A DNA stretch of 64,000 nt from an uncultured bacterium (lineage in GTDB: Bacteria > Planctomycetota > UBA1135 > GCA-002686595). A model generated the notes under the pieces. The model was not told the DNA's origin. It saw only the letters and a list, made by a program, of their open reading frames with translations, and did not search any database. Below, piece after piece: positions 1-57,393 of the stretch. A program made the position numbers and the translations under genes. The stretch lies in contig CALSNU010000003.1 in assembly GCA_943787795.1 (NCBI GenBank), positions 256,001 to 320,000 of the forward strand, read 5' to 3'. Positions within the stretch are counted from its first letter, which is position 1, and each line of letters starts with the position of its first letter.

Positions 1-364
1 CCCAGCGGATCGGCTCGTCGTCATCGTTGGTGTAGAACTCCTCCCGTCCGAAGAGCTCGGGTGAGTGGATGAACTCCACTTGGAGCGGGACGCCCTCGTC
101 GTTCTCGGAGTCCGGCAGCGGCGCCTTGCGGACGGAGACCGGGACGTCCCACCCGGGGAAGCTCAGGGGGAAGGGCGAGAGGAAGGGCTCCGTCTCGAGC
201 CCCGACCGTTCGACCCGCCCGTAGAGGGGGACGAACAGCCTGACCTCATGGCCACGCTTCCAGAGGGTTCGGGAGAGCGCCGCGGCCACGTCGGCGAGGC
301 CGCCCGTCTTGGCGAACGGAGCGCACTCCGCGGACACCATCGCGATGCGAAGGGGCAGCTGCAT
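1..364 (-). CDS. glgA: Glycogen synthase (GT5), 5' part; runs off the left edge of the window
   Basis: Not in the ORF track; translated by hand from the ATG at 364: MQLPLRIAMVSAECAPFAKTGGLADVAAALSRTLWKRGHEVRLFVPLY... It has the KTGGL ADP-glucose-binding motif and stays open to the window edge. Confidence 0.93.
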   Translation of the reverse strand, partial: MQLPLRIAMVSAECAPFAKTGGLADVAAALSRTLWKRGHEVRLFVPLYGRVERSGLETEPFLSPFPLSFPGWDVPVSVRKAPLPDSENDEGVPLQVEFIHSPELFGREEFYTNDDDEPIRW

Positions 365-458
365 GGCGGGAGCTTAGCGAACGGCGGGGGCCGGGTTGGG
401 CACGGCGAGGAGTTCTGGTGGGAATCCAGGCCCCGTTGGTGGGTATCCTCCGGTTCAG

Positions 459-1700
459 ATGTCACGCGCCAACACCGTCTTCGTCGCGCCCTTCGCCCTC
501 CCCAGCACGCTGAGGTTCCTGAGGGCGGCGGCCCTGCTCCCCGAGACCACCTTCTCGGTGGTGGCGCAGGAGCCGGCGGCGTCGTTCATGGCCGCGCTGG
601 ACGAGGAGGTGCGGGGTAGGATCGCCGAATTCGTGTCCGTGGCCGACTGCCACGACCCGGACCAACTCGAGGGAGCCGTCCGTCGAGTCGCCGGAAGCAC
701 GGGCGCCGGGGTCACGGCTCTGGTGGGCATCCTCGAGCCACTCCAGGAGGCGCTCGCATGCGTGCGGGAGCGACTCCAGATCCGCGGGATGGACCGCGCC
801 GAGGCGGGGCGCTTCAGGGACAAGGCGGTCATGAAGGACGCGCTCCGCGCCCATGACCTGCCCTGCGCCGGTCACCACCTGGCGACGGACGCGGCGAGCG
901 CCCTGAGCTTCGCGCGCCGCACCATGCCCCTCGTGGCCAAGCCCCCCGCTGGTGCCGGGGCCCGGGATACCTTCCGGGTGGATGAGGTCTCGCAGCTGGA
1001 GAGCTGGATGGCTTCGAATCCGCCGACTCCCGCGCGGCCGCTGCTGCTCGAGGAGTTCGTCCAGGGGCGGGAGTACTCCTTCGACAGCGTGTCGATCGGA
1101 GGTCGTCACCTCTTCCATTCGATCTCCGAGTACTCGCCCACGCCGCTGCAGGTCATGGAGTCGCCCTGGATCCAGTGGACGGTCATGCTGCCCCGGGATG
1201 TCGGTGGCCCGGAATATGCGCCGATCCTCTCGGCCGGTCCGCGTGCGCTGGATGCCCTGGGGATGGTCAGCGGGATGACCCACATGGAGTGGTTCCGCCG
1301 CGCCGATGGGTCCATCGCGATCTCGGAGGTCGCCGCGCGGCCGCCCGGGGCGCAGTTCACCTCCTTGATCTCCTACGCCCACGACCGCGACTTCTATCGG
1401 GTCTGGGCCGAGGTCTCGATCCTCGAGGAATTCTCGGTCCCGCCGCGCAAGTACGCGACCGGCGCCGCGTACCTGCGCGGTCAGGGCGGCGGCCGAGTGG
1501 CGCGCGTGGCCGGGATCGAGCGGGCCAACGAGGAGCTCGGTGACCTCGTCGTCGAGTCCCAGCTTCCGGTTCCGGGCCAGCTCAAGGCGAGCTCCTACGA
1601 GGGCGAGGGCTTCATCATCCTCCGCCATGAGGACACCGACCGCGTGCGGGAAGGGCTTCGGCGCGCCGTCGAGATCCTCCAGGTCGAGCTGTCCTCCTGA
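459..1700 (+). CDS. ATP-grasp domain protein 1 (carboxylate-amine ligase family)
   Basis: FRDKAVMK, VAKPPAGAGA, LLEEFVQGREYS, HMEWF and EVAARPPG motifs. Start placed at ATG 459 (MSRANTVFVAP). Confidence 0.88.
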   Translation: MSRANTVFVAPFALPSTLRFLRAAALLPETTFSVVAQEPAASFMAALDEEVRGRIAEFVSVADCHDPDQLEGAVRRVAGSTGAGVTALVGILEPLQEALACVRERLQIRGMDRAEAGRFRDKAVMKDALRAHDLPCAGHHLATDAASALSFARRTMPLVAKPPAGAGARDTFRVDEVSQLESWMASNPPTPARPLLLEEFVQGREYSFDSVSIGGRHLFHSISEYSPTPLQVMESPWIQWTVMLPRDVGGPEYAPILSAGPRALDALGMVSGMTHMEWFRRADGSIAISEVAARPPGAQFTSLISYAHDRDFYRVWAEVSILEEFSVPPRKYATGAAYLRGQGGGRVARVAGIERANEELGDLVVESQLPVPGQLKASSYEGEGFIILRHEDTDRVREGLRRAVEILQVELSS

Positions 1701-1752
1701 GCCGCGTCCGCCCTCCTCTTCCACCGACCCCACTCCACCCCTAAGGCTCCCC

Positions 1753-2994
1753 ATGACGATCAACGTCGTCCTCATTTCCCCGGGCTTCCCCGCCGACAAC
1801 GGTCACTTCACGCAGGCGCTGCACGCGCTGCCCGGCGTGCGAGTCCTGGGGGTCGGAGACCAGCCCATCGCGGCCATGGAGCCCGCGGTCCGGGCTGCCA
1901 TCGACGACCATCTCGTGGTGAAGGACCTCTGGAGCGAGGAGCAGACCGTGGCCGAGGTGGGCCGCTGGCTCGGACAGCTCGGGGTGCGGCCCGATCGGGT
2001 CGAGTGCCTGTGGGAGATCGGCGTGGTGCTGGCGGCGCGCATGCGTGAGGCCTTCGATGTCCCTGGCTTGCGCGTGGACCAGGCCGTGACCTTCCGTGAC
2101 AAGGAGGTGATGAAGGCAACCCTCGACGCCGCGGGGGTCCGCACGCCGCACCACTACCGCGCCCGAACCCGCGCGGAGGTGGAGGAGGCCGCCCGCGCCG
2201 TGGGGTACCCGCTGATCGTCAAGCCCATCGACGGCGCAGGCTCCGAGGACACCCACACGGCCCGCTCTGACGAGGAGCTCTCCCAGGTCATCGAGGCCGT
2301 GGCTCACGTCCCCGAGGTCAGCGTGGAGGAGTTCATCGAGGGCAAGGAGTTCACCTATGACGCGATCCTCGCCGACGGGGAGACCCTGTTCGAGAACGTG
2401 GCCTGGTATCGGCCCAAGCCGCTCGTCGCGCGCCAGAATCCGTGGATGAGCCCCCAGGCGGTGTGTCTCGCGGACCTGGAGCAGCCCGACGTCGCGCCGG
2501 GCGTGGAGCTGGGCCGCCGCGCCCTGAAGGCGCTTGGCTACCGCACCGGGATGGCCCACATGGAGTGGTACCTCTCGGACAAGACCGGGGAGGCCATCTT
2601 CGGAGAGGTCGGCGCCCGCGCCCCTGGGGGGCGGCTCTCCCACGGCATGAACTACGCGTGCGATGGCGACGTGTTCCAGCTCTGGGCGGAGGCGATCACC
2701 CGCGGCTCGTCGGAGCAGTCCATGGAGCGCCGGTACAACGCGGCGCTGGTCTTCAAGCGCGCCCACGGCGACGGGCAGCTCGTGACGCGGATCGAGGGGC
2801 TGGAGCCGATCCTCGCGCGCGACGGGGAGCACCTCCCCGTGGTCGAGCTGGTTCCCATCGGGGCGCCGCGGCGAGACTGGACCCAGGTGGTGACCGGTGA
2901 TGGGTGGTGCATCGCCCGGCATAACCTGCTGGGTGAGGCGCTCCGCATCGCGGACGACATCGGTCGGGACGTGAGGATCCACTGCGACGCCTGA
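1753..2994 (+). CDS. ATP-grasp domain protein 2, paralogous to 459-1700
   Basis: FRDKEVMK, GYPLIVKPIDGAGSEDT, EEFIEGKEF, HMEWY and EVGARAPG motifs. Start at ATG 1753 (MTINVVLISPGFP). Confidence 0.88.
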   Translation: MTINVVLISPGFPADNGHFTQALHALPGVRVLGVGDQPIAAMEPAVRAAIDDHLVVKDLWSEEQTVAEVGRWLGQLGVRPDRVECLWEIGVVLAARMREAFDVPGLRVDQAVTFRDKEVMKATLDAAGVRTPHHYRARTRAEVEEAARAVGYPLIVKPIDGAGSEDTHTARSDEELSQVIEAVAHVPEVSVEEFIEGKEFTYDAILADGETLFENVAWYRPKPLVARQNPWMSPQAVCLADLEQPDVAPGVELGRRALKALGYRTGMAHMEWYLSDKTGEAIFGEVGARAPGGRLSHGMNYACDGDVFQLWAEAITRGSSEQSMERRYNAALVFKRAHGDGQLVTRIEGLEPILARDGEHLPVVELVPIGAPRRDWTQVVTGDGWCIARHNLLGEALRIADDIGRDVRIHCDA

Positions 2995-3947
2995 TGGCCG
3001 CTGACTCCCGACCACTCGCTCTGCTGGGGCCCCAGCATGAGAGGCCGACCCTGCGCGATGTCCTCGACGGCATGGGCGCTGGGGGTCCTTATGTCCTCGT
3101 CTCCGCAGGTTGGCAGGAGCGCGAGTCCGAGACCGGGCGCCTCGACGCTCACCTCGGTGAGGCCGTACGCACCCTCGACCTCTGGCCGCGCTGCGAGGCT
3201 GCGTTCGAGGCGGACGCCGATCTTCGGCACATGATGTTCGATCGGCACGACCGAATGAATGAGCTGTCTGCGCTGTACCGCGTGCGGCTGGCGGCGGAGC
3301 TCGCTGCTGCCCGGGACCTGATGGGGCGCACGCGCCCGGATCGAGCAGACCCCCTCGTGGGCCCGTCGCTGGACCTCGCCTGCGGTGCCCTGCGAGACCT
3401 CGATGACCTCCACTGCTCGCGGGTGGGCGAGCTCAATGAGGAGGTCTTCGGCCAGGCCATCGAGCGGGAGAGTCTCCGCGCCGGCCGGGCGGAGATCGCG
3501 GAGGCGCTCGCTGGGGCAGGGACGCTGCTGGTGGCGGGGGGGCACGTCGGCATCCTCTACAACCGGATGCGCCTGTTCGGGGTGCGTGAGATGCTCCCCG
3601 CCGCGACCCCCGTGGTCGGCTGGTCGGCCGGCGCGATGGTGCTGACTGACCGCATCCTGCTCTTCCACGACTCGCCCCCCCAGGGCCCGGGCGACGCCGA
3701 GTTCCTGGGCCCCGGGTTCGGACTCGCTCCCGGCGTGGTCGTGCTGCCCCACGCCTCCCGGCGGCTTGACCTCGAGCACCGCGGCCGGGTCGCGCTCCTC
3801 GCCCGGCGGCTGGCTCCGGAGCTCGTGGTCGCCCTCGATGACGGCGATCGCCTCGAGGCTGGCGCGGAAGGCTGGTCCGGCGTGGGGGCGCGCCGACTGA
3901 CCCACGCCGGCGCGGTCGACGAAGAGCTCATGGGGGCCGGCGCGTGA
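2994..3947 (+). CDS. Peptidase S51 / cyanophycinase-like protein (class I glutamine amidotransferase-like fold)
   Basis: LLVAGGH, nucleophile motif GWSAGAM and VLPH. TGATG overlap with the upstream gene. Confidence 0.75.
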   Translation: MAADSRPLALLGPQHERPTLRDVLDGMGAGGPYVLVSAGWQERESETGRLDAHLGEAVRTLDLWPRCEAAFEADADLRHMMFDRHDRMNELSALYRVRLAAELAAARDLMGRTRPDRADPLVGPSLDLACGALRDLDDLHCSRVGELNEEVFGQAIERESLRAGRAEIAEALAGAGTLLVAGGHVGILYNRMRLFGVREMLPAATPVVGWSAGAMVLTDRILLFHDSPPQGPGDAEFLGPGFGLAPGVVVLPHASRRLDLEHRGRVALLARRLAPELVVALDDGDRLEAGAEGWSGVGARRLTHAGAVDEELMGAGA

Positions 3948-5074
3948 CGTCGCTCAGCAGCATCGAGGCGGTGAAGGACGCCATCGGCGAATCCGGGGCC
4001 GCTGCCCTGGAGGGGCTTGAGGTACCGATCGTCGAGGGCGGCCGCGCGCTCTTCGTCTATGAAGGCCGCGCGGAGGGCGTCTGGCTCCACCACTGGATCT
4101 TCGGGCTCGAGTCGGCCCAGGAGTTCCTTCGGACGCACCCCGACGTCTGGACGCTCGAGCTCGAGGTGCAGGCCACGGCCCGGGTCGAATACAAGCTGGA
4201 GATCCAGGACAATGGCGAGCGCAAGCTCATCCTGGACGCGCTGAACCCCGCCGTCGCGCGGGACCCGTTCGCCACCAACTCGGTGGTGACGGGCCCGGAC
4301 TACACGACCCCTTGGTGGGCGGTGGAGGATCGCTCGCGCCGTCAGGGGGTGATCCTTGAGCGGCAGCTTCAAAGCGAGGTCTTCGGCGACGTGCGCCCGC
4401 TCTCGATCTACCTCCCGCCTCGCTACCGGGTGACGCGCCGCTACCCGCTCCTCGTGGTGCACGATGGGCTCGACTATCTGCGGTATGCGGCCTTCAAGAC
4501 GGTGATCGACAACCTCATCGACCTCGGGGAGATCCCCCCGATGGTCGTGTGCTTCATTCAGTCGCCGGATCGGGTCCATGAGTACGCGGCGAGCGAACAG
4601 CACGCCGACTTCCTCGCGACCGAGCTGCTGCCGCTGCTCGAGGACGAGTTCTCGCTGGAGGCTGGCCCCGACAACCGCGCCTTGATGGGGGCCAGCTTCG
4701 GCGGCGTTGCGTCGCTCCACGCGTCGCTCCAGCACCCCGGTGTGTTCGGCCGCCTCTTCCTTCAGTCGGGCTCATTCGCGTTCACCGACATCGGTGACCA
4801 CGAGCGCGGCCCGCTCTTTGACCCGGTGGTGGCCTTCGTGAACGGGTACCGCCGCGCGCCGCAGAAGCCGGCCGACAGGGTCTTCCTGTCCTGCGGGATC
4901 TACGAGTCTCTCATCGTCTACAACCGCTCCCTGCTTCCGATGCTCCAGTCTGTCGGGGTCGACGCTACCCTCGTGGAGGCGCAGGACGGTCACAACTGGG
5001 AGAACTGGCGGGACCACCTCCGCGCCGGGCTCACCTGGCTCTTCCCCGGACCTCTCTGGATGGTGTACGAGTGA
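3944..5074 (+). CDS. Alpha/beta esterase (enterochelin esterase-like) with an N-terminal E-set/CBM48-like domain
   Basis: IYLPPRY..YPLLVVHDG, GASFGG nucleophile elbow, QSGSF and GHNW. The N-terminal segment W.LELEV...RVEYKL...LDALNP resembles an E-set domain. GTGA overlap with the upstream gene. Confidence 0.85.
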   Translation: MTSLSSIEAVKDAIGESGAAALEGLEVPIVEGGRALFVYEGRAEGVWLHHWIFGLESAQEFLRTHPDVWTLELEVQATARVEYKLEIQDNGERKLILDALNPAVARDPFATNSVVTGPDYTTPWWAVEDRSRRQGVILERQLQSEVFGDVRPLSIYLPPRYRVTRRYPLLVVHDGLDYLRYAAFKTVIDNLIDLGEIPPMVVCFIQSPDRVHEYAASEQHADFLATELLPLLEDEFSLEAGPDNRALMGASFGGVASLHASLQHPGVFGRLFLQSGSFAFTDIGDHERGPLFDPVVAFVNGYRRAPQKPADRVFLSCGIYESLIVYNRSLLPMLQSVGVDATLVEAQDGHNWENWRDHLRAGLTWLFPGPLWMVYE

Positions 5075-5080
5075 AACGAC

Positions 5081-6349
5081 ATGGCTGACATCAAACGAAT
5101 CGGGCTCTCCCTCGGCGCTGACATCTGCTGGCCGCGCTGCTTTGAGGGCATCCTCGAGCGGTGGGACCCCACCCTCAAGGTGGCGGGGCGTGACGTGCGC
5201 TTCGAGGTGGATCGAGTGGTCATCGAGCCCTTCGATCTGCGGACGCCGACGCGCTACAACGTCGTCCTCGACCGCCTCACCCACTGGTACGCGAACACCC
5301 GCGAGTGGATCAAGAAGGGTGTGCTGATGGACGACCTCTACGTCCTCAACAACCCCTGGTCGGTGCAGTCCATGGAGAAGCAGACCTCGTACTGCGCCAT
5401 GATGCGGCTGGGCATGCCAATCCCGGATACGTGGCTGGTGCCGCCGAAGGAGTATGAGTCCAGCCCGGACCTGCAGCCGACGCTCGAGCGCTATGCCCGT
5501 TACTTCGACCTCGAGGAGCTCGGGGAGAAGGTGGGCTACCCACACTTCATGAAGCCTTATGACGGCGGCGGCTGGGTCGGCGTCAACAAGATCGACAGCG
5601 TCGAGGAGCTCAAGACGGCCTACGACGAGAGCGGCAAGTTCGTCATGCACCTGCAGCACGGGGTGCTGCCCCACGATCACTTCGTCCGCTGCGTTGGGAT
5701 CGGTCCCGACATCCGGATGGTGGAGTACGACCCTTCGGCGCCCCTGCATGAGCGCTACACCAAGGAGTACAACCACCTCTCGCCGGCGGAGATGGAGCAC
5801 CTGCGCCAGATCACCCTGACGATCAACGCCTTCTTCGGCTGGGACTTCAACTCCTGCGAGAGCCTCCGACAGGACGGCGTCTGGCACCCGATCGACTTCG
5901 CGAACCCCTGCCCTGACTCGCAGGTGACCTCGTTGCATCAGCACTTCCCGTGGCTGGTGCTCGGCAAGCTGCGGTGGGCGCTCTTCGTCGCGGCCACCGG
6001 CCGCAAGTTCAAGAACAACCTCGACTGGGACCCGTACTTCGAGATCGCCGACGGGCCGGGCTCGTTTGCAGAGAAGCTCCCTCAGTACGCGGCGATCGCC
6101 GACGAACACTTCGAGACCGCGCGCTTCCAGGAGTTCTGCGCCGAGCACCTCGGCCCCCTGGATGAGGTGGCGTGGGAGTTCTTCGGCACCGCGGCGGCGA
6201 GAGACGCGGTGCACGAGAAGGTGGCCGCGCTCTTCCCCGAGCACGAGGTGGAGGAGTTCACCGAGCGCTTCTGGGGGTCGATCCAGAGCTGGCGGCACGA
6301 GACCGCTCACGCGTCGCCGAGCGACAGCATCCACGGAGTGCCGTCATGA
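5081..6349 (+). CDS. ATP-grasp domain protein 3 (RimK/glutathione synthetase-like)
   Basis: VLNNP, GMPIPDTWLVP, GYPHFMKPYDGGGWVGV and IDFANPCPD motifs. Confidence 0.85.
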   Translation: MADIKRIGLSLGADICWPRCFEGILERWDPTLKVAGRDVRFEVDRVVIEPFDLRTPTRYNVVLDRLTHWYANTREWIKKGVLMDDLYVLNNPWSVQSMEKQTSYCAMMRLGMPIPDTWLVPPKEYESSPDLQPTLERYARYFDLEELGEKVGYPHFMKPYDGGGWVGVNKIDSVEELKTAYDESGKFVMHLQHGVLPHDHFVRCVGIGPDIRMVEYDPSAPLHERYTKEYNHLSPAEMEHLRQITLTINAFFGWDFNSCESLRQDGVWHPIDFANPCPDSQVTSLHQHFPWLVLGKLRWALFVAATGRKFKNNLDWDPYFEIADGPGSFAEKLPQYAAIADEHFETARFQEFCAEHLGPLDEVAWEFFGTAAARDAVHEKVAALFPEHEVEEFTERFWGSIQSWRHETAHASPSDSIHGVPS

Positions 6350-7095
6350 CGCGTATCGCCGAGACCTGGACGTCCGAGCGCGTGGGGCGTGAGGTGAAGG
6401 TGGTCCGTTGGGGTGAGATGGGGACGCCCGTGGTCTTCTTCCCAACGGCCGCGGGGGACGCCGAGGAGTGCGAGCGGTTCCTGCTCGTGGACGCCCTCGC
6501 GCCGCTCCTGGAGGAGGGCATCATCAAGCTCTACTCGGTGGACTCGGTGCCAGGCATGGTCTGGTTGAAGGAGGACAACTCCGTGCCCGGCGCGTCCCGC
6601 GCCCAGGCGGGGTTCGACGCGTTCGTCGAGCACGAGCTTGTGCCCATGATCCGCCGGGACTGCAACGTCGCGGAAGGCGAGCCCCTGGACATCATCGCGT
6701 CGGGGGCGTCCATCGGTGCGTACAACGCCCTGGCCGCGATCTGCCGTCACCCGGAGCTGTTCTCGGAGGCGATCTGCATGTCCGGGACGTACGAGCTGTC
6801 CAAGTTCATCGACGGCGACATGGACGAGGCGTGGTACTTCGCGTCGCCCCTGCACTTCATCCCGAACCTGCCCGAGGATCATCCCAACCTCGCCCGCCTT
6901 CGAGAGCGCCGGATCCTCATCAGCCACGGCGCTGGCCGCTGGGAGGACCCCGAGGAGTCCTGGGCCGTCGCTCGCGTGCTGGGCGCCAGGGGGATCCCGA
7001 ACCACGTGGACGAGTGGGGCGAGGACTGGGACCACGACTGGCCGACGTGGCGCCGGATGCTGCCGGAGTATCTCAGGGCGCGCCTCGTCGACTGA
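6346..7095 (+). CDS. Alpha/beta hydrolase-fold esterase
   Basis: WGEMGTPVVFFPT, GASIGAY nucleophile elbow, MSG.Y and HDWPTW. ATGA overlap with the upstream gene. Confidence 0.85.
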   Translation: MTRIAETWTSERVGREVKVVRWGEMGTPVVFFPTAAGDAEECERFLLVDALAPLLEEGIIKLYSVDSVPGMVWLKEDNSVPGASRAQAGFDAFVEHELVPMIRRDCNVAEGEPLDIIASGASIGAYNALAAICRHPELFSEAICMSGTYELSKFIDGDMDEAWYFASPLHFIPNLPEDHPNLARLRERRILISHGAGRWEDPEESWAVARVLGARGIPNHVDEWGEDWDHDWPTWRRMLPEYLRARLVD

Positions 7096-7419: not shown

Positions 7420-9807
7420 ATGATCCTCACAGCCTCGCGCGTCGCTCTGCTCGCCCTCGCCGTCCTCTCACCCGCGGCTCTGGGCCAGGTGGAGGCGCCG
7501 TCCTTCGACAACGTCCCCTTCGTCCACGACACAGGGTGGGTGTCCCCGGCCGCTGCGACGGGCAGCGACCTCGAGCTCTGCGCGAGCTTCGCCGTGGACC
7601 AGGAGGGCGCGGAGTGGATCCGGCTCTACTTCGAGGATGTCGTGCTCGCCGGGGATCTGCTCGCGGGCACCGGCGCCGAGCTCCGCATCACCTCGATGCT
7701 GGACGGAGGCCTTCAGGTCATGAACGCCATCGAGGTGGAGCGCTGGGACCGCTCGACCGCGTACTTCAATGGAGACGCCCTGGTGGTCGAGGTCTGGGCG
7801 CGGCCTGGAACCGGCACGAGCCGCGTGCAGCTCCGGGCCATGGATATGGGGACGCCTCCGCTCCTTGGGACGGCCTCCATCTGCGGCCCGAACGACGACC
7901 GCCTGCCGTCGACCGACGCGCGCTCGGGGCGGTTGCTCCCGGTGGGCTGCACGGGGTGGCTGATCCAGGACTGCGCGGGCTGCTTCCTGACGGCGGGGCA
8001 CTGCACCGGCAACCTCCAGGTGATTCAGTTCAACGTGCCCCCCTCGTCCAGCTCCGGCTCCATCCAGAACCCGCCGCCCTCGGACCAGTACCCGGTGGAC
8101 GGCGCGTCGCTCCAGTCCAACGGTGGGCAGGGCGTGGGGGACGACTGGGCCTACTTCGGCGCCTTTCCGAACGGCACCTCGGGGCTGACCGTGACCCAGG
8201 CCCAGGGCCCCGGCTTCCAGCTCTCCGCCCCGCCGCAGCCGGGCGGCGCCGACATCCGGATCACGGGCTTCGGGACGGATAGCTCTCCGCCTGAGCGCAA
8301 TCAGACCCAGCAGACCCACCTCGGACCGCTGGTCACCAACTCCGGAACGACGGTGCAGTACCAAACGGACACCACCGGCGGGAACTCCGGTTCGCCGGTG
8401 ATCTGGGCCCAGACGGACCAGGCGGTGGGCATCCACACCCACGGCGGGTGCAGCTCCTCCGGCGGCCAGAACTCGGGCACGAGCTTCTCGCACCCCGATC
8501 TTCAGAGCGCGCTGGCGAGCCCTCAGGGCATCTGCGGCGCGAGCCTCGCCGCGCCCGGCGCGCCGACCCTCTTGCCGCCGCTTCAGGCGGTCGCGGTCTC
8601 CGCGCTGGTGCTCGGGCCGGTGGTCCCCGGCAGCGTGACGCTCCACGAGCGCACGAGCCTGGCCGGGATGTTCCAGTCCATCGCCATGGTGGACATGGGC
8701 GGTGGGGTCTTCACGGCTCAGCTGCCGGCCTACGTCTGCGGCGATGTGCCGGAGTACTTCTTCAGCGCCCAATCGGTGTCTTGTGGCCAGGTCTTCGCGC
8801 CCGCAGGCGGCGCTTCAGACCCGTTCACCGCCGCAGTGGGGGTGGTCAACACGAGCTTCGCCGACGACTTCGAGGTCCCCCTGGGCTGGCAGACGGCCTC
8901 CACCGCCACGACCGGAGACTGGCAGCGCGGGGTCCCGGTGAACGACCCCTCGTGGGCTTTCGACCCGTCCTCCGACGGTGATGGCAGCGGGAGCTGCTTC
9001 GTCACCCAGAACACAGCCGGCAACTCGGATGTGGACAACGGCGAGGTCCGGCTCACCTCGCCCCCGCTCACCGTCGTGGGCGCGGCGAGCGAGTTGACTT
9101 ACCTCTACTACCTCGAGCTGAGCAACCAGAACGCTGAGGACGAGCTGGCCGTCGCCGTGAGCCCGGACGGCGGCGTGAACTGGTCCACGCTCCGACGGCA
9201 CCGCTCCTCGACCGGCGGAGGGTGGGTTCCGGACACCCTCACCGCGGCGGAGCTCGCCGGCGCAGGGGTCGTGGCTGGCTCGACCATGCTCGTGCGATTC
9301 ACCGCGAACGACGCGAACGCTCAGTCCATCGTCGAGGCGGGCGTGGACGGGGTCCAGGTCGGGACCGTGGACTGCGATCCGACCGTGATCGGCGTCGCCG
9401 AGTGCGCCCCGGCGGTCGCCAACTCTACCGGGGCCCCTGGAACGCTCCGGGCCGTGGGCTCCAGCGCCGTGGCGGATAACGACGTGCAGCTCATCGCCGA
9501 GTCGCTCCCTGTGAACACCCTCGGGTACTTCTTGGTGTCGACGGATGCCGGGCTGATCGTCAGCCCGGGCGGGAGCTCAGGGACCCTCTGTCTCGGCGGC
9601 TCGATTGGCCGCTACGCAGGCGATGTCCTGAGCTCGGGGCCCGCCGGAGAGTTCCTCTTCCAGCTGGACCTCTCCGCGCTGCCGCAGCCCACGGGCGCCG
9701 TGGGGGCTGTGGCCGGTGACACGTTCCGGTTCCAGGCCTGGTTCCGCGACTTCTCGATCTTCAACACCTCCAACTTCACCCACTCCCTGGCGATCAGCTT
9801 CGACTGA
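7420..9807 (+). CDS. Secreted trypsin-like serine protease with C-terminal beta-sandwich domains
   Basis: Signal peptide MILTASRVALLALAVLSPAALG; catalytic LTAGHC, DWAYF and GGNSGSP; C-terminal domain ending FQAWFRD...NFTHSLAISFD. Confidence 0.88.
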   Translation: MILTASRVALLALAVLSPAALGQVEAPSFDNVPFVHDTGWVSPAAATGSDLELCASFAVDQEGAEWIRLYFEDVVLAGDLLAGTGAELRITSMLDGGLQVMNAIEVERWDRSTAYFNGDALVVEVWARPGTGTSRVQLRAMDMGTPPLLGTASICGPNDDRLPSTDARSGRLLPVGCTGWLIQDCAGCFLTAGHCTGNLQVIQFNVPPSSSSGSIQNPPPSDQYPVDGASLQSNGGQGVGDDWAYFGAFPNGTSGLTVTQAQGPGFQLSAPPQPGGADIRITGFGTDSSPPERNQTQQTHLGPLVTNSGTTVQYQTDTTGGNSGSPVIWAQTDQAVGIHTHGGCSSSGGQNSGTSFSHPDLQSALASPQGICGASLAAPGAPTLLPPLQAVAVSALVLGPVVPGSVTLHERTSLAGMFQSIAMVDMGGGVFTAQLPAYVCGDVPEYFFSAQSVSCGQVFAPAGGASDPFTAAVGVVNTSFADDFEVPLGWQTASTATTGDWQRGVPVNDPSWAFDPSSDGDGSGSCFVTQNTAGNSDVDNGEVRLTSPPLTVVGAASELTYLYYLELSNQNAEDELAVAVSPDGGVNWSTLRRHRSSTGGGWVPDTLTAAELAGAGVVAGSTMLVRFTANDANAQSIVEAGVDGVQVGTVDCDPTVIGVAECAPAVANSTGAPGTLRAVGSSAVADNDVQLIAESLPVNTLGYFLVSTDAGLIVSPGGSSGTLCLGGSIGRYAGDVLSSGPAGEFLFQLDLSALPQPTGAVGAVAGDTFRFQAWFRDFSIFNTSNFTHSLAISFD

Positions 9808-13065: not shown

Positions 13066-14418
13066 TTAGACGTTGACGAAGTCCGCGTCACTGGGGAGGT
13101 CGTGGTCGTCGGCTCTTCGATTGCGCTTGAAGTCATATCCGCGGGGGACACAGACGATCCCGGAGTCGGTGACCGTGAAGCGCTTACGGTCCTCGTCCAG
13201 GTCAACGCCGATCTCTGCGCCCGAGGGGACGGTGGTCCACTTGTCGATGATCGCCCGGCGGATGATGGCGCCAGGCTCTACGACGACGCCGTGCATCAGG
13301 ATGCTCTCCTCGATGTCCGCGTCCTCGCCTGAGCAGACGCGGTTCCCCATGATGGAGCGCCGCACCCGTGACCCGGAGATGATGGATCCATTACAGAGCA
13401 GGGAGTCCACGATCTGCGCGTGGTGCCCCTCTGGCTCCGAGAAGATCGTCTTGGCCGGCGGGTCGTTGTGCCAGAGCGTATAGATGGGCCAGTGCTTGTC
13501 GTACAGGTTGATCGAAGGCACCACCTGGCAGAGGTCCAGGTTGGCGTCGAAGTACGCGTCGAGCGTGCCCACGTCTCGCCAGTAAGGGGTGTTGCCCTTG
13601 GGGTCTTCCGACCTGGGGCCGCCTGCATTCTCTGCGCCGCTTGCGCCGCCGGCGGCGTCCACGTCACGGAAGGAGTGGGCGATGACCGTGGTGCCGTCCT
13701 CGACCATCGCAGGGAGCACGTCCTGGCCGAAGTCGTGGCTCGTCCCGGAGGTCTTGGCCATGTCCTCGCGGAGGCGCCGGATGAGCTCCTGCCGTTCGAA
13801 GATGTAGATCCCCATGGACCCCAGGCAGCGACCGGGCTTGCCCGGGATCTCCGTGCCGACCTCCGGCTTCTCCTGGAAGCCCGTCACCTGCGACCGGCCA
13901 TCGACCTCGAGGACGCCGAAGCGCGGCGCGTCCTCCGCGCCGATCTCCACGGCGCCGATGGTGCACTTGGCGCCGGCCTCGACGTGCTCCTCCAGCATGT
14001 CGCCGTAGTCCATCTTGTAGATGTGGTCGCCCGAGAGGATCACCACGTGATCACACTCGACCTGCTGGAGTAGCTCGAGGTTCTGGGCGATCGCGTCGGC
14101 GGTTCCCCGGTACCAGCTTCCCTGTCCGCCGTGTTGGGGGGGGCGCGGGACGATGAACTGGGAGAGACGACGGGGTAGGAAGTTCCAAGCGAGGCGCAGG
14201 TGCTCTTCCAGCGAATACGCCTGGTACTGCGTCAGCACGAAGACGCGCCGGAGTCCGGAGTGGATGACGTTCGATAGGGTGAAGTCGATGATCCGATAGG
14301 CCCCGCCGAAGGGCACTGCCGGCTTGGCGCGGCCGATCGTGAGCGGCGAGAGGCGCTCTCCGCGCCCTCCCGCGAGGACGAAGGTCAGCGTCGACTTGAG
14401 GAGCTGTGCGCGATTCAT
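13066..14418 (-). CDS. glgC: Glucose-1-phosphate adenylyltransferase
   Basis: VLAGGRGERLSPLT..RAKPAVPFGG.YRIIDF, WYRGTADA, LSGDHIYKMDY, SMGIYIF, HDFG and YWRDVGT. Confidence 0.97.
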   Translation of the reverse strand: MNRAQLLKSTLTFVLAGGRGERLSPLTIGRAKPAVPFGGAYRIIDFTLSNVIHSGLRRVFVLTQYQAYSLEEHLRLAWNFLPRRLSQFIVPRPPQHGGQGSWYRGTADAIAQNLELLQQVECDHVVILSGDHIYKMDYGDMLEEHVEAGAKCTIGAVEIGAEDAPRFGVLEVDGRSQVTGFQEKPEVGTEIPGKPGRCLGSMGIYIFERQELIRRLREDMAKTSGTSHDFGQDVLPAMVEDGTTVIAHSFRDVDAAGGASGAENAGGPRSEDPKGNTPYWRDVGTLDAYFDANLDLCQVVPSINLYDKHWPIYTLWHNDPPAKTIFSEPEGHHAQIVDSLLCNGSIISGSRVRRSIMGNRVCSGEDADIEESILMHGVVVEPGAIIRRAIIDKWTTVPSGAEIGVDLDEDRKRFTVTDSGIVCVPRGYDFKRNRRADDHDLPSDADFVNV

Positions 14419-14601
14419 GGGGGTGCGAGGGCCGGGGGCTCGGAATCCGCCTTGATCAGAACAGACTGGGAGCCCGGATAACAGATGACCCAGGGAGATC
14501 CTCCGCGACTCGACCTTTGATCTGGATCGCGCAGGTAGCTACCTTCCCAGGTGAAGGCGCTGTGCCAGAGCGCACGACCCGGGCCCACGGCTCCACCCCG
14601 A

Positions 14602-16599
14602 ATGTCTGCCCCTCTTCTGCGTCGACTTCAACAGCCCAGGGAACTCCACTCGGAGCCCCTTGGTGGCCGCCGCTGGTGCTCCACCGCGACCGACGCCCGC
14701 GACATCGCGTCCACGGGCCCGCACCTCATCGGGCTCCCCGAGCGGGTCCTCTGGTCCTCTGGGCGCCGCGCGGCTGACGGGCTCCTCGTGGCGGAGCGTC
14801 TCGACGACGGGCTGCTGGTGGCCGAGACCGCCGACCTGCCGGGCGAGCCGATCGTGTGGCTGGGTGACCTGGCCGTGACCCTGGGCGAAGATCCTGAGGT
14901 TGGAGATCCGGAGCCGAGCGCCCTGGCTTCGGCGCCTGTCGGGCTCGGAGCACCCAGGATCCGCCTCGGCACCCTCACGCCTCGGGTCGAGGCGGTCTGG
15001 TCCGTCAACGAGTCGCTGGCGCGGGTTGAGTGCACGCTGCCCTGCCGCCCGGTCGGCCAACGCACCCACCAGAACGATGCGCTCGATCCCCGAGTGCAGT
15101 TGGAGGCCACCGAGTCGGGGGCGGTCGCGCGCGTACGCCCCTATCCCGGGATGCCGGCGATCATCCTTCGCTTCAACGGCGACGTCACCCTTGTGGGGGC
15201 CGCGCTCTGGCATTCGGACGTCGCGGTCCTCGACCGCACGGGGCCCATCGGCGTCGAGGATCGATTCTCGCCGGGAGTGTTCCTGGTTCGTCTGCCCGAG
15301 ACCGCCACGAGCCTGCGGGTGACGGTTGAGGTCGAGGCGGACCTGGTCCGCGCCGGCGACCGGCGCGCTGGAGTCGACGCCGAGCCCGCCGCCGAGCCTG
15401 ACGCTGAGCCTGACGCTGAGCCTGACGCCGAGCCTGACGCCGAGCCTGAAGCTGGGCCGGGAGTTGGGCCCCTGTCGGCCGCCGTCACGGCGCGCGGACG
15501 GCTCATGGACATCCTCTCTGCCCCGGGGCTCGCGCTCGAGGCGGGCTGGAGCCCCGATCAGATCTCCAGCTGGATCAAGCACCATGTGGCCGCCGCCGTG
15601 ACCGCCATCGGGGGCCCCGGTGAGGTCGCCGGGGATGACTCCGCCCTGTGGCTGGGGCGTACGTGCCAGCTGCTCCTACGTAACCTCCGATCGGCCTGGG
15701 GCCCGCTGACTTATCGGGGGCTCGTGGAGGACTGCTTTGCTCCGGCGGTCGCCTCGATGGTCGACGCGATCCTCGCCGAGGCACCCGGTGCCGCGTCAGC
15801 CTCGGAGCTGAGCGACGGCGCGGTGGGGGAGAGCCCTCCCACCGATGGGGTCGCCGGGTTCGCTGGAGCAGGCCCGGGTGAGGAGACGAGCCCCGGGGCC
15901 GCGCGGTTCCGGGGGACCCGTCGCTGGTACGAGGTGCTCGCCTCCACCCCGTCCGTCCCGCGCGGAGCGGTGTGCGTGGAGGCCGGCGCGCTCCTGCACC
16001 AGCTGTTCATCTTTGATGAGCAGCTTTGCCGGATGACATCGAACGGGCCGCGGCGCGAGCAAGCTGCGCGCCGCGCGCTGGACGCCCGCCGCTGGTTTCA
16101 GCGGGCCTTCTGGCTCTCGACGCCGCGGCGGCTCGCGGACCTCGAGGTGAGCGGGTCGGACCCCGTTGGCGGGACGGCCCTGTCCATGCGGGCCGGGATG
16201 CTCGTGGCGGCTGCCCTCGAGGGGGCGCCCCTGGATCAGATGCAGCGCCGCGCCGTGGTGAACGCGGCGGATGAGCGCCTGCTGACGCCCCTTGGGGTGC
16301 GGTCCATCGATCGAGCGGACCTTGGGTTTCACCAGGATTCGCCGGTGGACGGCGCGGTCTGGCCGTGGCTCCTCGGGATGCACGTCGAGGCGGCGATCAG
16401 GGCGTTCGGGCGAGACTTCGTCCGCCTCGACTTCGAGGAGAGCCTGCTGGCGGCCATCGATGGCGCGCCTGAAGCCTGGGCCGAACGCTCGGAAGGCGGC
16501 GTGTCGCCGATCGGAGACTTGACCTTCCCCCCTGCCAGCGGCGAGTCCATTCGAGCGTTCCGCCTCCTGACCGAGGTCCTGGGCGGAACACCGGAGTGA
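14602..16599 (+). CDS. Amylo-alpha-1,6-glucosidase (archaeal/Bacteroidota-type debranching enzyme)-like protein, strongly diverged
   Basis: LLTPLGVRSI, GAVWPWLLG, PRGAVCVEAGAL and DDSALW remain. It heads a GT4-GH57 operon. Start is uncertain (GTG 14551 or ATG 14602). Confidence 0.7.
   Translation: MSAPLLRRLQQPRELHSEPLGGRRWCSTATDARDIASTGPHLIGLPERVLWSSGRRAADGLLVAERLDDGLLVAETADLPGEPIVWLGDLAVTLGEDPEVGDPEPSALASAPVGLGAPRIRLGTLTPRVEAVWSVNESLARVECTLPCRPVGQRTHQNDALDPRVQLEATESGAVARVRPYPGMPAIILRFNGDVTLVGAALWHSDVAVLDRTGPIGVEDRFSPGVFLVRLPETATSLRVTVEVEADLVRAGDRRAGVDAEPAAEPDAEPDAEPDAEPDAEPEAGPGVGPLSAAVTARGRLMDILSAPGLALEAGWSPDQISSWIKHHVAAAVTAIGGPGEVAGDDSALWLGRTCQLLLRNLRSAWGPLTYRGLVEDCFAPAVASMVDAILAEAPGAASASELSDGAVGESPPTDGVAGFAGAGPGEETSPGAARFRGTRRWYEVLASTPSVPRGAVCVEAGALLHQLFIFDEQLCRMTSNGPRREQAARRALDARRWFQRAFWLSTPRRLADLEVSGSDPVGGTALSMRAGMLVAAALEGAPLDQMQRRAVVNAADERLLTPLGVRSIDRADLGFHQDSPVDGAVWPWLLGMHVEAAIRAFGRDFVRLDFEESLLAAIDGAPEAWAERSEGGVSPIGDLTFPPASGESIRAFRLLTEVLGGTPE
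15382..15453 (+). repeat. In-frame 12 bp tandem repeat x6 encoding EPDA
   Basis: gagcctgacgc(t/c) units inside the debranching-like CDS. Confidence 0.9.
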
Positions 16600-17939
16600 T
16601 GAAGGTACTGGTTCTTGGCTGGGAGTATCCCCCGGCCGTGGCGGGCGGACTGGGGGCGGCGTGCCACGGGCTCACCACCGCCCTCGCCGATCGCGGTCAC
16701 GAGGTGATCCTGTGCACGCCCGCGGACGGCGCTCCGGCAGACCCGGCGCCGTACCCCGGGATCGAGCGCGTGTCCCTCGGCGGTGACGCCTCGTTCTCCC
16801 CGTTTCACCCCGGGGCCGTGCTGGACCCTTATGCCGTGGATACGGCTCCCGGCTCGGCCAGCGCATCGGGGTCGCTCGTGCCACCCGTATCCTCTGGGGC
16901 GGCTGTCGCGGGGGCCGCGTCGGTGGAGGCTGGCTCAACGGGGCTCGGTTCATCCCGCCCTGACTCCCACGCGCAGAGCGCCCGCAAGCTGTACGGCGAG
17001 GACCTCTCGACGGCGATCCAGCGCTACTCCCGTGAGGCGGTGACCCGCCTCAAGGGTCGAGACTTCGACGTGGTCCATGCCCACGACTGGATGACGTTCC
17101 CCGCGGCGCTCCGCCTGCGCTTCGCGCGCCGACGACCCGTGTGCCTCCACGTGCACTCCACGGCGATCGACCGGGGCGGGGTATCCGCGCCGGGGCCGGT
17201 GGGGTCCATCAGCGCGGTGGAGCGCGCCGGGCTCCGCACGGCGGATCGGGTCTGCGCGGTCAGCGGCTTCACCAGGGATCTCCTTGTGCGTGAATATCGC
17301 CTCGACCCCGAGCGGGTCAGCGTCGTGCATAACGCGGCGCCTTCCGGCGTGGATTCGTCTCCCGAGAGGGTGGTCGGGCCGGAGGGCCCCACGGTCCTCT
17401 TCGTCGGGCGCTTGACCCGCCAGAAGGGCGTCGGCTTCCTGGTCCGAGCGGCGGCCCGGGTCCTGGAGTCCTGCCCGGCGGCGCGCTTTGTGTTCATGGG
17501 GGAGGGGGAGGATCGGACGCGGATGATCGAGATGGCTGCGGCCCTCGGGATCGGCCGGAGGGTCTTCTTTGCCGGTGGCGTGACCTCGGAGCTGCGCGAC
17601 CGCGCCTACGCCGAGGCCAGCGTCTTCGTGCTCTCCTCGGTCTCGGAGCCCTTCGGCCTGACGCCGCTTGAGGCCCTGCGCGGTGGCGCCGCTCCCGTCC
17701 TCACCGACGCCTGTGGCGTCCGCGAGGTCTTGCCCTCCGCCCCCGTGTGTCCCCCCTGGGATGCTGCCGGCCTGTCGGCCCAGATCGTCACCTTGCTCAC
17801 CGACGAGGCCCGACGCCTCGCGGTCGTTGAACAGGGCCGAGCAGAGCTCGAGCGCCTGACCTGGGCCGAGAGTGCCCGCCACCTAGAGGCTGCCCTGGAG
17901 AAGGCGCGGTCCACCTCCGGGAGGAGGACCACCGGATGA
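16599..17939 (+). CDS. GT4 glycosyltransferase (putative alpha-glucan/glycogen synthase type)
   Basis: MKVLVLGWEYPPAVAGGLGAAC, HAHDWMT, HVHST, FVGRLTRQKG and SEPFGLTPLEA. TGATG overlap with the upstream gene. Confidence 0.9.
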   Translation: MKVLVLGWEYPPAVAGGLGAACHGLTTALADRGHEVILCTPADGAPADPAPYPGIERVSLGGDASFSPFHPGAVLDPYAVDTAPGSASASGSLVPPVSSGAAVAGAASVEAGSTGLGSSRPDSHAQSARKLYGEDLSTAIQRYSREAVTRLKGRDFDVVHAHDWMTFPAALRLRFARRRPVCLHVHSTAIDRGGVSAPGPVGSISAVERAGLRTADRVCAVSGFTRDLLVREYRLDPERVSVVHNAAPSGVDSSPERVVGPEGPTVLFVGRLTRQKGVGFLVRAAARVLESCPAARFVFMGEGEDRTRMIEMAAALGIGRRVFFAGGVTSELRDRAYAEASVFVLSSVSEPFGLTPLEALRGGAAPVLTDACGVREVLPSAPVCPPWDAAGLSAQIVTLLTDEARRLAVVEQGRAELERLTWAESARHLEAALEKARSTSGRRTTG

Positions 17940-19120
17940 CCTCGATCGTCTACTACTTCCAGGTCCATCAGCCCTACCGGGTGAAGCCCTTTCCCTACGA
18001 CGCGATCGGCGCCCGGTCCGACTACTGGGATGACTGGCTCAACGAGGACGTGGCCAAGCGCGTGGCAGAGAAGTGCTACCTGCCCATGAACCGCCAGCTC
18101 CTGCGGGCGGTGGAGCGCTCGGATGGCGCCTTTCGGTGCAGCTTCTCGGTCTCGGGTACCGCCATTCGTCAGCTCGCCGCCTGGGCGCCTGAGGCCCTCG
18201 AGAGCTTTCGCGACCTCGCGGAGAGCGGTTCGGTGGAGTTCATGTGCGAGACCTCCCGGCACAGCCTCGCTGCGCTCGTGGACCCAGAGGAGTTCAAGGC
18301 TCAGGTCGCAGAGCAGCGCGCGCTGCTGAAGGAGCACCTCGGCGTCGAGCCCACGGCCTTCCGCAACACCGAGCTGATCACGGACGCGAGCGTCGCTCAG
18401 CAGGTGAAGGACCTGGGCTTCGAGGTGCTGCTCGCCGAGGGTGCCGATCAGCTCCTCCACGGCCGGACGGCCCAGGCCCTGTACGGCATGGCGGGGGCAG
18501 GCGGCTTCCCCCTGATCCTCCGGGACTTCCAGCTCTCCGACGACATCGGGTTCCGCTTCAGCAACCAGGGCTGGGAGGGGTATCCCCTGCTCGCGCCCAC
18601 CTTCAACGGGTGGCTCGAGTCCCTCCCTGACGAGCGTCCGTTCGTCGGGCTCTTCATGGACTACGAGACCTTCGGCGAGCACCAGTCGCGGGATACCGGG
18701 ATCTTCGACTTCATGGACACCATGGTCGACCTCGCCGTGGCCTCGGACAAGCTGGACTTCGCGACCCCGACGGAGATCGCCCGGCGAGATCCAATCGTGG
18801 AGGACCTGGACTATCCACGCCCGATCTCCTGGGCGGACGAGGAGCGGGACGTCTCGGCCTGGCTTGGCAATCACATGCAGCGCGCGGCGCACGAGGCCAT
18901 CTACAAGCTCGGCCCCGCGGCGCGAGCCTCGGGGGATGCGGACCTGCTGAACACGTGGCGGGACTTCACCACCTCGGATCACGTGTACTACATGTCGACG
19001 AAGTGTGAGACTGACGGCGACGTGCACGAGTACTTCAGCCCCTACGACAGCCCGCACGATGCTTACCTCAACGTGATGAACGCGCTCGAGGACCTGCGGC
19101 GGCGGCTCGGCGCGGACTGA
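17936..19120 (+). CDS. GH57 family alpha-amylase / glycoside hydrolase
   Basis: FQVHQPYR, FRNTELI, LSDDIGFRFS, FMDYETFGEHQ, SWADEERD and SDHVYYMSTK. Confidence 0.92.
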   Translation: MTSIVYYFQVHQPYRVKPFPYDAIGARSDYWDDWLNEDVAKRVAEKCYLPMNRQLLRAVERSDGAFRCSFSVSGTAIRQLAAWAPEALESFRDLAESGSVEFMCETSRHSLAALVDPEEFKAQVAEQRALLKEHLGVEPTAFRNTELITDASVAQQVKDLGFEVLLAEGADQLLHGRTAQALYGMAGAGGFPLILRDFQLSDDIGFRFSNQGWEGYPLLAPTFNGWLESLPDERPFVGLFMDYETFGEHQSRDTGIFDFMDTMVDLAVASDKLDFATPTEIARRDPIVEDLDYPRPISWADEERDVSAWLGNHMQRAAHEAIYKLGPAARASGDADLLNTWRDFTTSDHVYYMSTKCETDGDVHEYFSPYDSPHDAYLNVMNALEDLRRRLGAD

Positions 19121-23761: not shown

Positions 23762-25709
23762 ATGCCTGAAGCTTCACGCCCCCAGCCTCCGATTTCCCTC
23801 ACGCAGCGTCCCCTCACGCAGCGTCCCCTCACGCAGCGCCTCCGTGACCTTCATGGAGCGCTGGGCGAACTCGTGGCGCCCGGTGGCCCGGGGGGAGAGG
23901 CCGTGGCTGCCGTACGCTCGCGCCTGGAGCGAGATCTGCTCCCCAGGACGGCCGGTGGGCATGAGCACCTGGTGGTGGGGATCGTCGGACCCAACAACGC
24001 GGGCAAGTCCTCGCTCTTCAACGCGCTGGTGGCCGGCGAGGGCGCGGCGCCCAGGGTCCTGAGTCCAGCCGAGCCGACGGGCGGGGCGACGCGCCGGCTG
24101 GTGGGGGCGCTCTCGCCAGCGCTGCGCGCGGCCCTCGAGGCCGAGCCCACCATGCGGCGATTCGATCTCCGTCCGGTGACCTGCGGGGCCGGCGGCGTGG
24201 AAGAGGCCAGGGAGTCCGCCGAACCCGGTGCCGAGGCGGCGCTGTTCCTCGTGGAGTCGGACGTGCTCCCGGACGGCCTGCTGCTCGTGGACACCCCCGA
24301 CTTCGACAGCGTGCTCCGGGAGAACCGTGCCGTGACCGACGCCCTGCTCGAGGTGGCAGACGTCGCGGTGGTTGTGGTGACCCGGCACACCTATCAGAAC
24401 CACGACGTCATCGAGTTTCTATCGGGCTGGCTCGAGCACGGCCGGCCCTGGGTGCTCGTCTACAACGAGTCCATCGACGACGCGACCACCGCAGCCCACG
24501 CCCGCAAGGTCGAGGAGGATCTGGCACAGGCGGCCGAGGCGATCTTCGCCGCCGCGTTCGATCCTGGGGTCGCGCGGGGGGAGGCGCCGCTGGAGCCGCG
24601 CGACCTGCGAGACCCGGGCGTCTCCCTCGCGGGCTGGTTGCGCGCGCTGGGGGACCGCGGCGATCTCAAGGCGCGAGCCATGGAGGCGTCACTGGCCGCC
24701 CTCAGGGAGGGCCTCGGGGAGCTGGGCCTCGAGTGTCGCCGGGCCATCGGCGCCGTGGCGCAGGCGAGAGGCTCGCTGCTGGAGTCGGCGACCCCGCTCG
24801 GTCGCGCGGTGGCGAGGGAGGCGATGCCCATGGGCCCGTTCCTGGAGGCCTTCCGTGATGTGCTGGATGAGCGGCCGACGCTCGTCCAACGAGAGCTGCG
24901 TCGAGGGCTACGGTGGACCGGCGATCAGCTCGCTGGCGGGCTGCGCTGGGCCAGGCGGCAGCTGACCGGCGGCGCGCAGGGGCCGTCGGCCGACGACATC
25001 GCCGAGCGGACCCTCCTCGAGGTGGAGCGCGTGGAGCTCGAGCGCCGTTGGGCTGGATTCTTCGAGCCCGCCCAGCGCCGCCTGCGCGAGCTCGCGCGCG
25101 ACGGCGGCCTGCCACCCCCGGGCGGTCGAGGCGCTCGAGGTCGAGCTTGGCGCGGCGCCGGGGCGAGGCTCCGGGGCCGGAGCGGTTTCCCCGGCCCGCG
25201 CCTCATTTGACCGGGCGGCCGCTGCGCTGGCCCTCGACCCTGGCCTGCTCGAGGAGCACCGAGCAGCGTGCCGTGAGATCATTCGAGAGGAGTTGGACCG
25301 TCAGGGCTCCGAGGCCTTCCTGCAGCTCGCGGTCGACGTGGTGCACCTGCTGCCGCTGGGCGTGGCCGGCGCGCTCATCGTGCACACCGGCGGCCTGGGG
25401 AGCGACGTGGCCGTGGCCGGCGGGGGTGCGGCAGCGGCGGCCCTGGCGGAGCGCCTCTCCCGGACCCTGGGCACCGGGGTGGCCTTGGCCGCCCGCTCGC
25501 GTTGGACGGAACTGCGCGCGGCCCGAATCGCCGAGGCGGCGCTGGCTGGCCTCTTGGGGCCAGCGGCGGGCGTCTTCAAGAACGTCGAGGCCGAGGCGGC
25601 CGAGTTGCGCTCCACCTGCGACGAGTGGGCGGCGCCCGCGGCGTGGAGCTGGGACCTGAACGACCCGGCTGCCCAGGCGGCGGCGCGCGGCGAGGAGTCA
25701 CCGATATGA
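23762..25709 (+). CDS. Dynamin-like/TRAFAC GTPase 1 with C-terminal membrane segment; one extra base (frameshift) near 25115-25119
   Basis: G1 GPNNAGKSS and G3 DTPD. Removing one C from the C5 run joins ORF 23579-25210 to ORF 25293-25709 and restores an ATGA overlap with the next gene. Confidence 0.75.
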
Positions 25710-34239: not shown

Positions 34240-34249
34240 CGCGGGTTCG

Positions 34250-57385: not shown

Positions 57386-57393
57386 GCGCGCAG

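Follow-up and report, generated by a model that had tools for sequence, protein, structure and literature searches.

Bacterial glycogen is regarded as a plain glucose polymer. Ester decoration of polyols is known from teichoic acid D-alanylation and from the acylation of mycobacterial methylglucose lipopolysaccharide, both of which place on sugar or polyol hydroxyls the same kind of reversible ester groups that we propose below for an alpha-glucan. However, these systems use carrier-protein or acyl-CoA transferases and are not known to employ ATP-grasp enzymes or to act on storage glycogen. Cyanophycin metabolism (CphA and CphB) likewise resembles the system considered here in that ATP-grasp synthesis is paired with an S51 protein, with a possible storage role. 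Relatives are also known for single proteins, namely the L-amino-acid ligases RizA, BacD, and BL00235, the RimK, LysX, and ArgX ligases, the CBM48-CE1 esterases (wtsFae1B, 6RZN/8BBP), and the enterochelin esterase Fes (2B20). Here we analyze a gene module carried by a 64,000-nucleotide stretch of contig CALSNU010000003.1 (hereafter the window) from an uncultured member of the Planctomycetota. Its eight genes are glgA, which encodes a glycogen synthase, and g0 through g6, which encode four ATP-grasp ligases (g0, g1, g2, and g5), an S51-like protein (g3), and two serine esterases (g4 and g6). We find this to be a real, widespread, and uncharacterized module that is tied to glycogen synthase, and its function is very probably coupled to alpha-glucan or glycogen metabolism.

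The module recurs beside alpha-glucan genes

A scan of Genome Taxonomy Database (GTDB) genomes confirmed relatives in 575 of 600 stretches, and the best 80 loci, which are the closest ones and not a random draw, were analyzed further. These loci span Planctomycetota, Myxococcota, Acidobacteriota, Actinomycetota, Eisenbacteria, Gemmatimonadota, and Proteobacteria. Among them, g4 is present in 73, g6 in 57, g3 in 55, g0 in 46, g2 in 39, g1 in 38, glgA in 33, a GCS2-CBS ligase gene in 23, and glgC in 14. The sequence-only reading of this DNA had linked the operon to alpha-glucan genes, and such genes are indeed enriched around the relatives from these seven phyla taken together, with one present in the 10-kb flanks of 41 of the 80 loci (30 of the 48 that are at least 17 kb long), whereas only ~1.8% of this genome is that close to an alpha-glucan gene. 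The ligases, moreover, match no characterized pathway that would place them elsewhere. The glucan partner shifts with lineage and can be glgA, glgC, glgB, malQ, a GH13 or GH57 gene, or a GT3-phosphorylase. Gene order is variable; of the 33 loci with glgA, 22 have it immediately 5' of g0 in the same orientation. Where the locus itself had no glucan gene, glgA was found elsewhere in 13 of 15 genomes tested. A distant class of relatives scoring 475-510 bits has glgA or glgC in four of seven fetched loci.

Co-occurrence was assessed in samples of 201 genomes from the same phylum, 121 genomes centered on a Haliangiales genome (Myxococcota), and 151 Acidimicrobiia. In the phylum sample, long-type g5 occurs in 36 genomes; g0 shares 35 of them and is absent, at the same score, from the rest of the sample. 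A GT5 glgA accompanies g5 in 33 of the 36 genomes versus 105 of the 165 others; counting the source genome, 19 of the 36 g5 genes have a glgA within 12 kb, and 25 of the 35 g0 genes have one within 10 kb. The corresponding figures for glgA are 26 of 26 g5-bearing genomes versus 63 of 95 others in the Myxococcota sample, and 11 of 11 versus 30 of 140 (GT5 glgA) among the Acidimicrobiia. Fisher tests that leave out the center genomes give p values of 6e-4 (own phylum), 1e-4 (Haliangiales-centered), and 7e-7 (Acidimicrobiia), which overstate the association because related genomes are not independent. An Actinomycetota-wide sample, with g0 in 2 of 151 genomes, was uninformative.

All five Acidimicrobiia loci that were fetched carry a glucan gene beside the g4, g5, and g6 genes: three have glgA and glgC (two of these also glgB), and two have a GH13 gene right after g6. 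Because four of the five have none of g0 through g3 nearby, g4, g5, and g6 constitute the minimal core of the module.

Several variants of the neighborhood were observed. Two loci (L100:5000-14000 and L102) hold a short, distant g5 relative (~300 aa) and a g6-like esterase gene beside glgB, the first of them additionally with an M29 aminopeptidase gene and glgC. A proteobacterial version (L066:7492-8640 and L069:7444-8601) has a GCS2 ligase gene lacking CBS domains right before g4, with no glucan gene in the scanned flanks. In seven Myxococcota-type loci (L029, L042, L051, L053, L067, L074, and L078), a gene for an N-formylglutamate-amidohydrolase-like protein sits just upstream of the glgA-g0 pair.

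Most module-linked GlgA proteins form one clade

The glgA gene next to g1 encodes a glycogen synthase that exceeds the TIGR02095 cut-off (516 versus 328 bits) and has the KTGGL and EPCGL motifs; K19, D146, R314, K319, and E392 are invariant in 33 aligned sequences. In a FastTree analysis of 78 GlgA rows, rooted at the midpoint and with outside rows picked from lower-scoring matches, 39 of the 43 linked rows (from four phyla) fall together with three unlinked ones on a single branch with an SH-like support of 100, and the fetched second GlgA copies of the same genomes fall outside it. Other linked rows sit in separate branches (G219; G052, G097, and G180; and G342, G510, and G591, for which one broken long row was dropped from the tree), which suggests that GlgA has been recruited repeatedly. 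In the Myxococcota sample, a second glgA is present in all nine genomes that have the clade versus 14 of 80 others, and the clade glgA remains near g0 in five of eight fetched loci whose module genes are no longer together. The support for a link to alpha-glucan metabolism comes from neighborhoods, from co-occurrence, and from a dedicated GlgA clade.

Residues particular to the clade are E117, C132-Q133, W162-D163, L206, and Q475; E117 and L206 occupy positions that hold Asn and Glu in most other GlgAs (N106 and E190 of Escherichia coli by alignment). The source genome also has a second, distant glgA (G000:C1:616705-618150; 29% identity) outside the linked clade. A complex prediction for GlgA with g0 scored 0.00 and is evidence neither way.

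Relationships of the ligases, esterases, and S51-like protein

The proteins g0, g1, and g2 are paralogs with 30-32% identity (31-32% for g1 and g2 against g0), of which g1 and g2 align over their full lengths. Their ATP-binding lysines and their H-x-E, E, and R motifs are invariant across the three: K122, K161, E198/E199, E205, H275, E277, E290, and R294 in 37 aligned sequences of g1, and K117, K157, E192/E193, H269, E271, E285, and R289 in 38 sequences of g2. When a g0 profile (the only one of the three searched) was compared with the Protein Data Bank (PDB), the best solved relatives were RizA (4WD3), BacD/YwfE (3VMM), and BL00235 (3VOT), with E values from 6e-23 to 5e-14. All three paralogs resemble these L-amino-acid ligases in the layout of their catalytic motifs and may make dipeptides from free L-amino acids. 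Unlike RizA and BacD, they travel as three paralogs with a glycogen synthase and esterases, and no genes for antibiotic-peptide tailoring or export are among their recurrent neighbors. The curated BacD model is missed by far (39 versus 850 bits). Nine genomes (G062, G085, G104, G109, G138, G170, G043, G142, and G004) have an extra g0-like paralog (440-550 bits) away from the module.

The match of g5 to Pfam is weak, and TIGR00768, the curated RimK-family model, was absent from the 14 NCBIfam matches at E 0.01. A predicted model (predicted local distance difference test score, pLDDT, of 87) is nevertheless closest in fold to RimK by VIA-align (Z 20.1, rmsd 2.9, 264 aligned residues), followed by other RimK, synapsin, and ArgX/LysX chains, and the nearest structure by Foldseek is ArgX (TM 0.72 by target length). 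K100, K158, R203, E260, D272, and N275 are kept in 81 of 81 sequences, so that the Lys, Lys, Arg, and metal-site positions of RimK, LysX, and ArgX are invariant in g5. It differs from those ligases in its 15-17% identity to them, in a metal site of the form E...D-x-x-N (E260...D272-F-A-N275), in a helical tail of ~110 aa, and in its esterase partners. The family comprises at least 7,860 clusters, with an Atlas cluster of 8,601, and carries no functional name; its closest named members are from Planctomycetota metagenome-assembled genomes, and a plasmid collection yielded no relative at E 1e-20. Labilithrix luteola, which is in culture, encodes a g5 (WP_146654736.1) of 66% identity.

Both g4 and g6 have the G-x-S-x-G serine, acid, and histidine expected of a serine esterase, and these residues are kept in every homolog aligned (S251, E321, and H350 in 73 of 73 for g4; S122, E200, and H230 in 57 of 57 for g6). 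The N-terminal domain of g4 gave no CBM48 match in Pfam, and a sequence search with it returned only a weak match to a glucoamylase starch-binding domain (E 0.07). Its predicted model (pLDDT 93) has a CBM48 fold, with wtsFae1B as the best match (Z 12.9, rmsd 2.5 over 101 residues) and pullulanase, Fes, and AMPK next at Z 10-11.6 (10.3 for the AMPK beta CBM). The same two-domain build is found in the CBM48-CE1 esterases and in Fes. Compared with these, g4 has no signal-peptide-like segment, its recurrent neighbors include no xylan or siderophore genes, and its score falls below the curated Fes cut-off (98 versus 222 bits).

For g3, the sequence-only reading had suggested an S51, cyanophycinase-like peptidase. 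The domain assignment stands, in that the protein exceeds the Pfam S51 cut-off (30.8 versus 23.9 bits) and belongs with Atlas clusters in which 21-43% of members have PF03575. PDB sequence searches with g3 gave nothing under E 0.06. The evidence for the cyanophycinase-like part is weaker: the gene is absent from 25 of the 80 loci, the pair S211 and H253, present here, varies among homologs, and no CphA scores above cut-off in this 85%-complete genome (best 84 versus 850 bits). Compared with cyanophycin metabolism, the module comes without a detected CphA, its g3 differs by a long insert and by a catalytic pair that varies, and its two esterases and GlgA have no equivalent there. On a separate contig of the same genome, a GCS2-CBS ligase gene is followed by an AstE/AspA-like gene (G000:C5:257363-260505; L082:8322-11505); both adjoin the module elsewhere, so here they probably represent pieces of it that have become detached.

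None of g0 through g6 reached a function-level cut-off in NCBIfam, and a search of the open-access literature, outside which most subscription papers lie, found no description of the module. A survey of amidoligase and ATP-grasp neighborhoods by Iyer et al. 2009 (Mol Biosyst) may list this neighborhood.

A possible ester decoration of glycogen and its alternatives

In the conserved core, one ligase that activates carboxyl groups is paired with two serine esterases. This pairing implies that the product is an ester, and the recurring hydroxyl-rich partner is glucan, which is why decoration of the glucan is the reading that we favor. We tentatively propose that the module carries out reversible ester-linked aminoacyl or peptidyl decoration of glycogen or maltooligosaccharides, a proposal in which every chemical step is conjectural and to which we assign somewhat less than an even chance. 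The enzyme set is likely cytoplasmic and is genetically tied to glycogen synthesis. The glucan would be made by GlgC and GlgA, while g0, g1, and g2, joined in many genomes by the GCS2 ligase, would link amino acids into a short peptide. The carboxyl group of this peptide would be activated by g5 as an acyl phosphate and passed to a glucose hydroxyl, either directly by g5 or via a serine enzyme acting as a transacylase. Ester cleavage by g4 and g6 would precede mobilization of the glucan, and the peptide would be recycled by g3 and the AstE/AspA-like enzyme. With only the minimal core, and hence no g0, g1, or g2, a single residue or acid would be attached instead. Formation of esters by ATP-grasp enzymes has precedents in D-Ala-D-Lac and graspetide lactones (PMC6920838 and PMC8939145).

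A bolder version, which we consider doubtful, is that the dedicated GlgA clade works with the three paralogous ligases to produce a further storage polymer, namely an alpha-glucan that is primed by or bears peptide and serves as a joint reserve of carbon and nitrogen. If amino-acid decoration or priming does occur, it would constitute a new layer of carbon storage that is coupled to nitrogen status, and would provide a sugar acceptor for an ATP-grasp enzyme.

Several observations weigh against ester decoration of a glucan. All four ligases have amide-forming enzymes as their closest solved relatives. The CBM48 fold of g4 does not prove glycogen binding because its best match belongs to the CE1-appended subfamily, whose domains did not bind starch according to PMC8040265, and the N-terminal domain of Fes has the same fold. 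S211 and H253 of g3 are both kept in just 36 of 55 homologs. No glucan gene was found in the 10-kb flanks of 18 of the 48 long loci, a Pfam scan of 117 nearby genes in 19 glucan-negative loci recovered one GH13 gene, and among seven fetched loci with a called short-type relative only two have glucan genes (glgB). Three of the 36 Planctomycetota genomes with g5 have no glgA match (these are 86-93% complete), and physical linkage to glgA (12 kb or less) is limited to 7 of the 26 g5 genes of the Myxococcota sample. Finally, kin are not independent, and the best 80 loci overlap the genome samples.

An alternative product is a free peptide or peptide polymer that, like cyanophycin, would serve as a nitrogen reserve and be turned over beside glycogen without being attached to it. 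Four or five amide-type ligases together with the S51 protein and the AstE/AspA-like enzyme resemble cyanophycin turnover, the GCS2 ligase found in 23 of the 80 loci bears CBS domains, and g0 occurs together with long-type g5 in 35 of 36 genomes even when the two are unlinked. We nonetheless consider such a reserve rather unlikely, since it explains neither why the core has two invariant esterases, nor why a GlgA clade is dedicated to the module, nor why the dependence on glgA is almost complete, and since the genome has no CphA above cut-off and g3 is absent from many loci and variable in its catalytic pair. The module might also make an unrelated small metabolite and travel with glycogen genes only as part of a stationary-phase island; many loci have no glucan neighbors, and in the proteobacterial loci L066 and L069 a GCS2 ligase gene is the sole companion of the core. 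That the module is linked time and again to glucan genes of different kinds and to several GlgA lineages argues against this, as does the glgA present in nearly all of the tested genomes whose loci have no glucan gene, and we regard it as quite improbable.

The fold of g5 bears on two further alternatives. Because RimK is the closest match to its model, g5 might add residues to glycogen enzymes such as the linked GlgA, as RimK and LysX do to their targets, with the hydrolases removing them to control storage; the residues particular to the GlgA clade could form a surface for such a partner. Against this protein tagging, which we judge unlikely, the L-amino-acid ligases use free amino acids as substrates (PMC6920838), no gene for a conserved small carrier or an acidic-tailed target is among the recurrent neighbors, and the core also occurs beside ordinary GlgA lineages that do not have the clade residues. 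Tagging or a peptide reserve, if true, would represent a new protein modification or a new reserve compound, respectively. A glucan kinase is also conceivable, with g5 phosphorylating the sugar or glucan like the ATP-grasp inositol kinase ITPK1, which is among its feature look-alikes at 0.93 and matches its model at Z 18.2. Ligases usually have Glu-x-Asn at the metal site and ITPK1 has Asp, and g5 has an invariant Asp there (D272-F-A-N275). However, RimK outranks ITPK1 in the structural comparison, the obligate partners of g5 are serine esterases, and no phosphatase gene recurs among the neighbors, so that we hold a kinase to be very improbable.

Organization of the locus

The sequence-only reading had described six co-oriented genes, a divergent glgA, and glgC together with debranching-enzyme-like, GT4, and GH57 genes within 12 kb, and the open reading frames and the sequence bear out this layout, the distance being counted from the operon end (Table 1). 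Stop and start codons overlap at 2994 (TGATG), 3944 (GTGA), and 6346 (ATGA), and gaps of 52 and 6 bp separate the other two gene pairs of the operon; on the minus strand, glgA begins at position 364. The enzyme classes that it had named also hold, with Pfam ATP-grasp matches for g1 and g2, S51 for g3, PF00756 for g4 and g6, and a g5 model closest to RimK. The unit is larger than first noted because it adds a fourth ATP-grasp gene, g0, and a CBM48-fold domain in g4.

Table 1. Coordinates of the module and of the alpha-glucan genes around it. Positions refer to the window unless a contig coordinate is given.
Feature	Position	Strand	Description
g1	459..1700	+	ATP-grasp, L-amino-acid-ligase-like, 413 aa
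g2	1753..2994	+	ATP-grasp, paralog of g1 and g0, 413 aa
g3	2994..3947	+	Peptidase S51-like, insert of ~100 aa, 317 aa
g4	3944..5074	+	N-terminal CBM48-fold domain and PF00756 serine esterase, 376 aa; core gene
g5	5081..6349	+	RimK-fold ATP-grasp, helical C-terminal extension, 422 aa; core gene
g6	6346..7095	+	PF00756 serine esterase, 249 aa; core gene
glgA (5' part)	1..364	-	GT5 glycogen synthase, 493 aa; whole gene G000:C3:256364-254883; module-linked clade
g0	G000:C3:254785-253565 (beyond the window)	same as glgA	ATP-grasp, L-amino-acid-ligase type, 406 aa; 97 bp downstream of glgA
glgA/g1 divergent gap	365..458	.	94 bp
glgC	13066..14418	-	ADP-glucose pyrophosphorylase
Debranching-enzyme-like (GDE_C), GT4, and GH57 genes	14551..19120	+	Part of the surrounding alpha-glucan locus

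An intracellular product had been favored because neither an exporter nor a precursor peptide gene was seen. No exporter was found in the module, and none of eight proteins has a hydrophobic segment typical of export. Neither the precursor peptide gene nor the exporter that a graspetide RiPP cluster would have is among the recurrent neighbors, with open reading frames shorter than 70 aa not systematically searched. The genes g1 through g6 have a coding-type third-position GC of 0.85-0.93, and public-run contigs, matching the stretch at no less than 99%, extend across the junctions of g2 with g3 and of g4 with g5. The gap between glgA and g1 contains no sigma-70-like promoter site and no Rfam match, and terminator-like sites occur at the locus at chance level only. 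Four marine RNA libraries from one study contain the stretch, but their contig cover stays low and even across 19.5 kb, the divergent gap included; because of these features, DNA in the libraries may account for the reads, which are no evidence of transcription or co-transcription.

Directly after g6 lies a gene (window positions 7420-9807) whose product is a secreted trypsin-like protease extended by a long C-terminal region; the gene is present there in 5 of the 80 loci, all close relatives. Just past g0 are genes for an FMN alpha-hydroxy-acid dehydrogenase (L001:12323-13531) and a catalase-peroxidase (L001:9367-12033). The dehydrogenase was considered as the source of a hydroxy-acid acceptor and was rejected, being a neighbor in 1 of the 80 loci. 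The debranching-enzyme-like gene (14551-16599) has a weak match to the C-terminal Pfam domain alone, an uncertain start, and a PDAE/PEAE repeat insert near 15370-15450, and is possibly degenerate.

Elsewhere in the window, two adjoining P-loop genes (23972-27466), one with a Dynamin_N match, possibly encode a bacterial dynamin-like pair. A gene for a DEAD-box helicase with an MrfA zinc-binding domain is followed by an RNase_H_2 gene (54674-58935), and this arrangement resembles the MrfAB repair pair. Genes for a PIG-L deacetylase, an alpha-L-fucosidase with a PA14 domain, and a GDSL/BNR protein (33121-39356) likely function in glycan breakdown.

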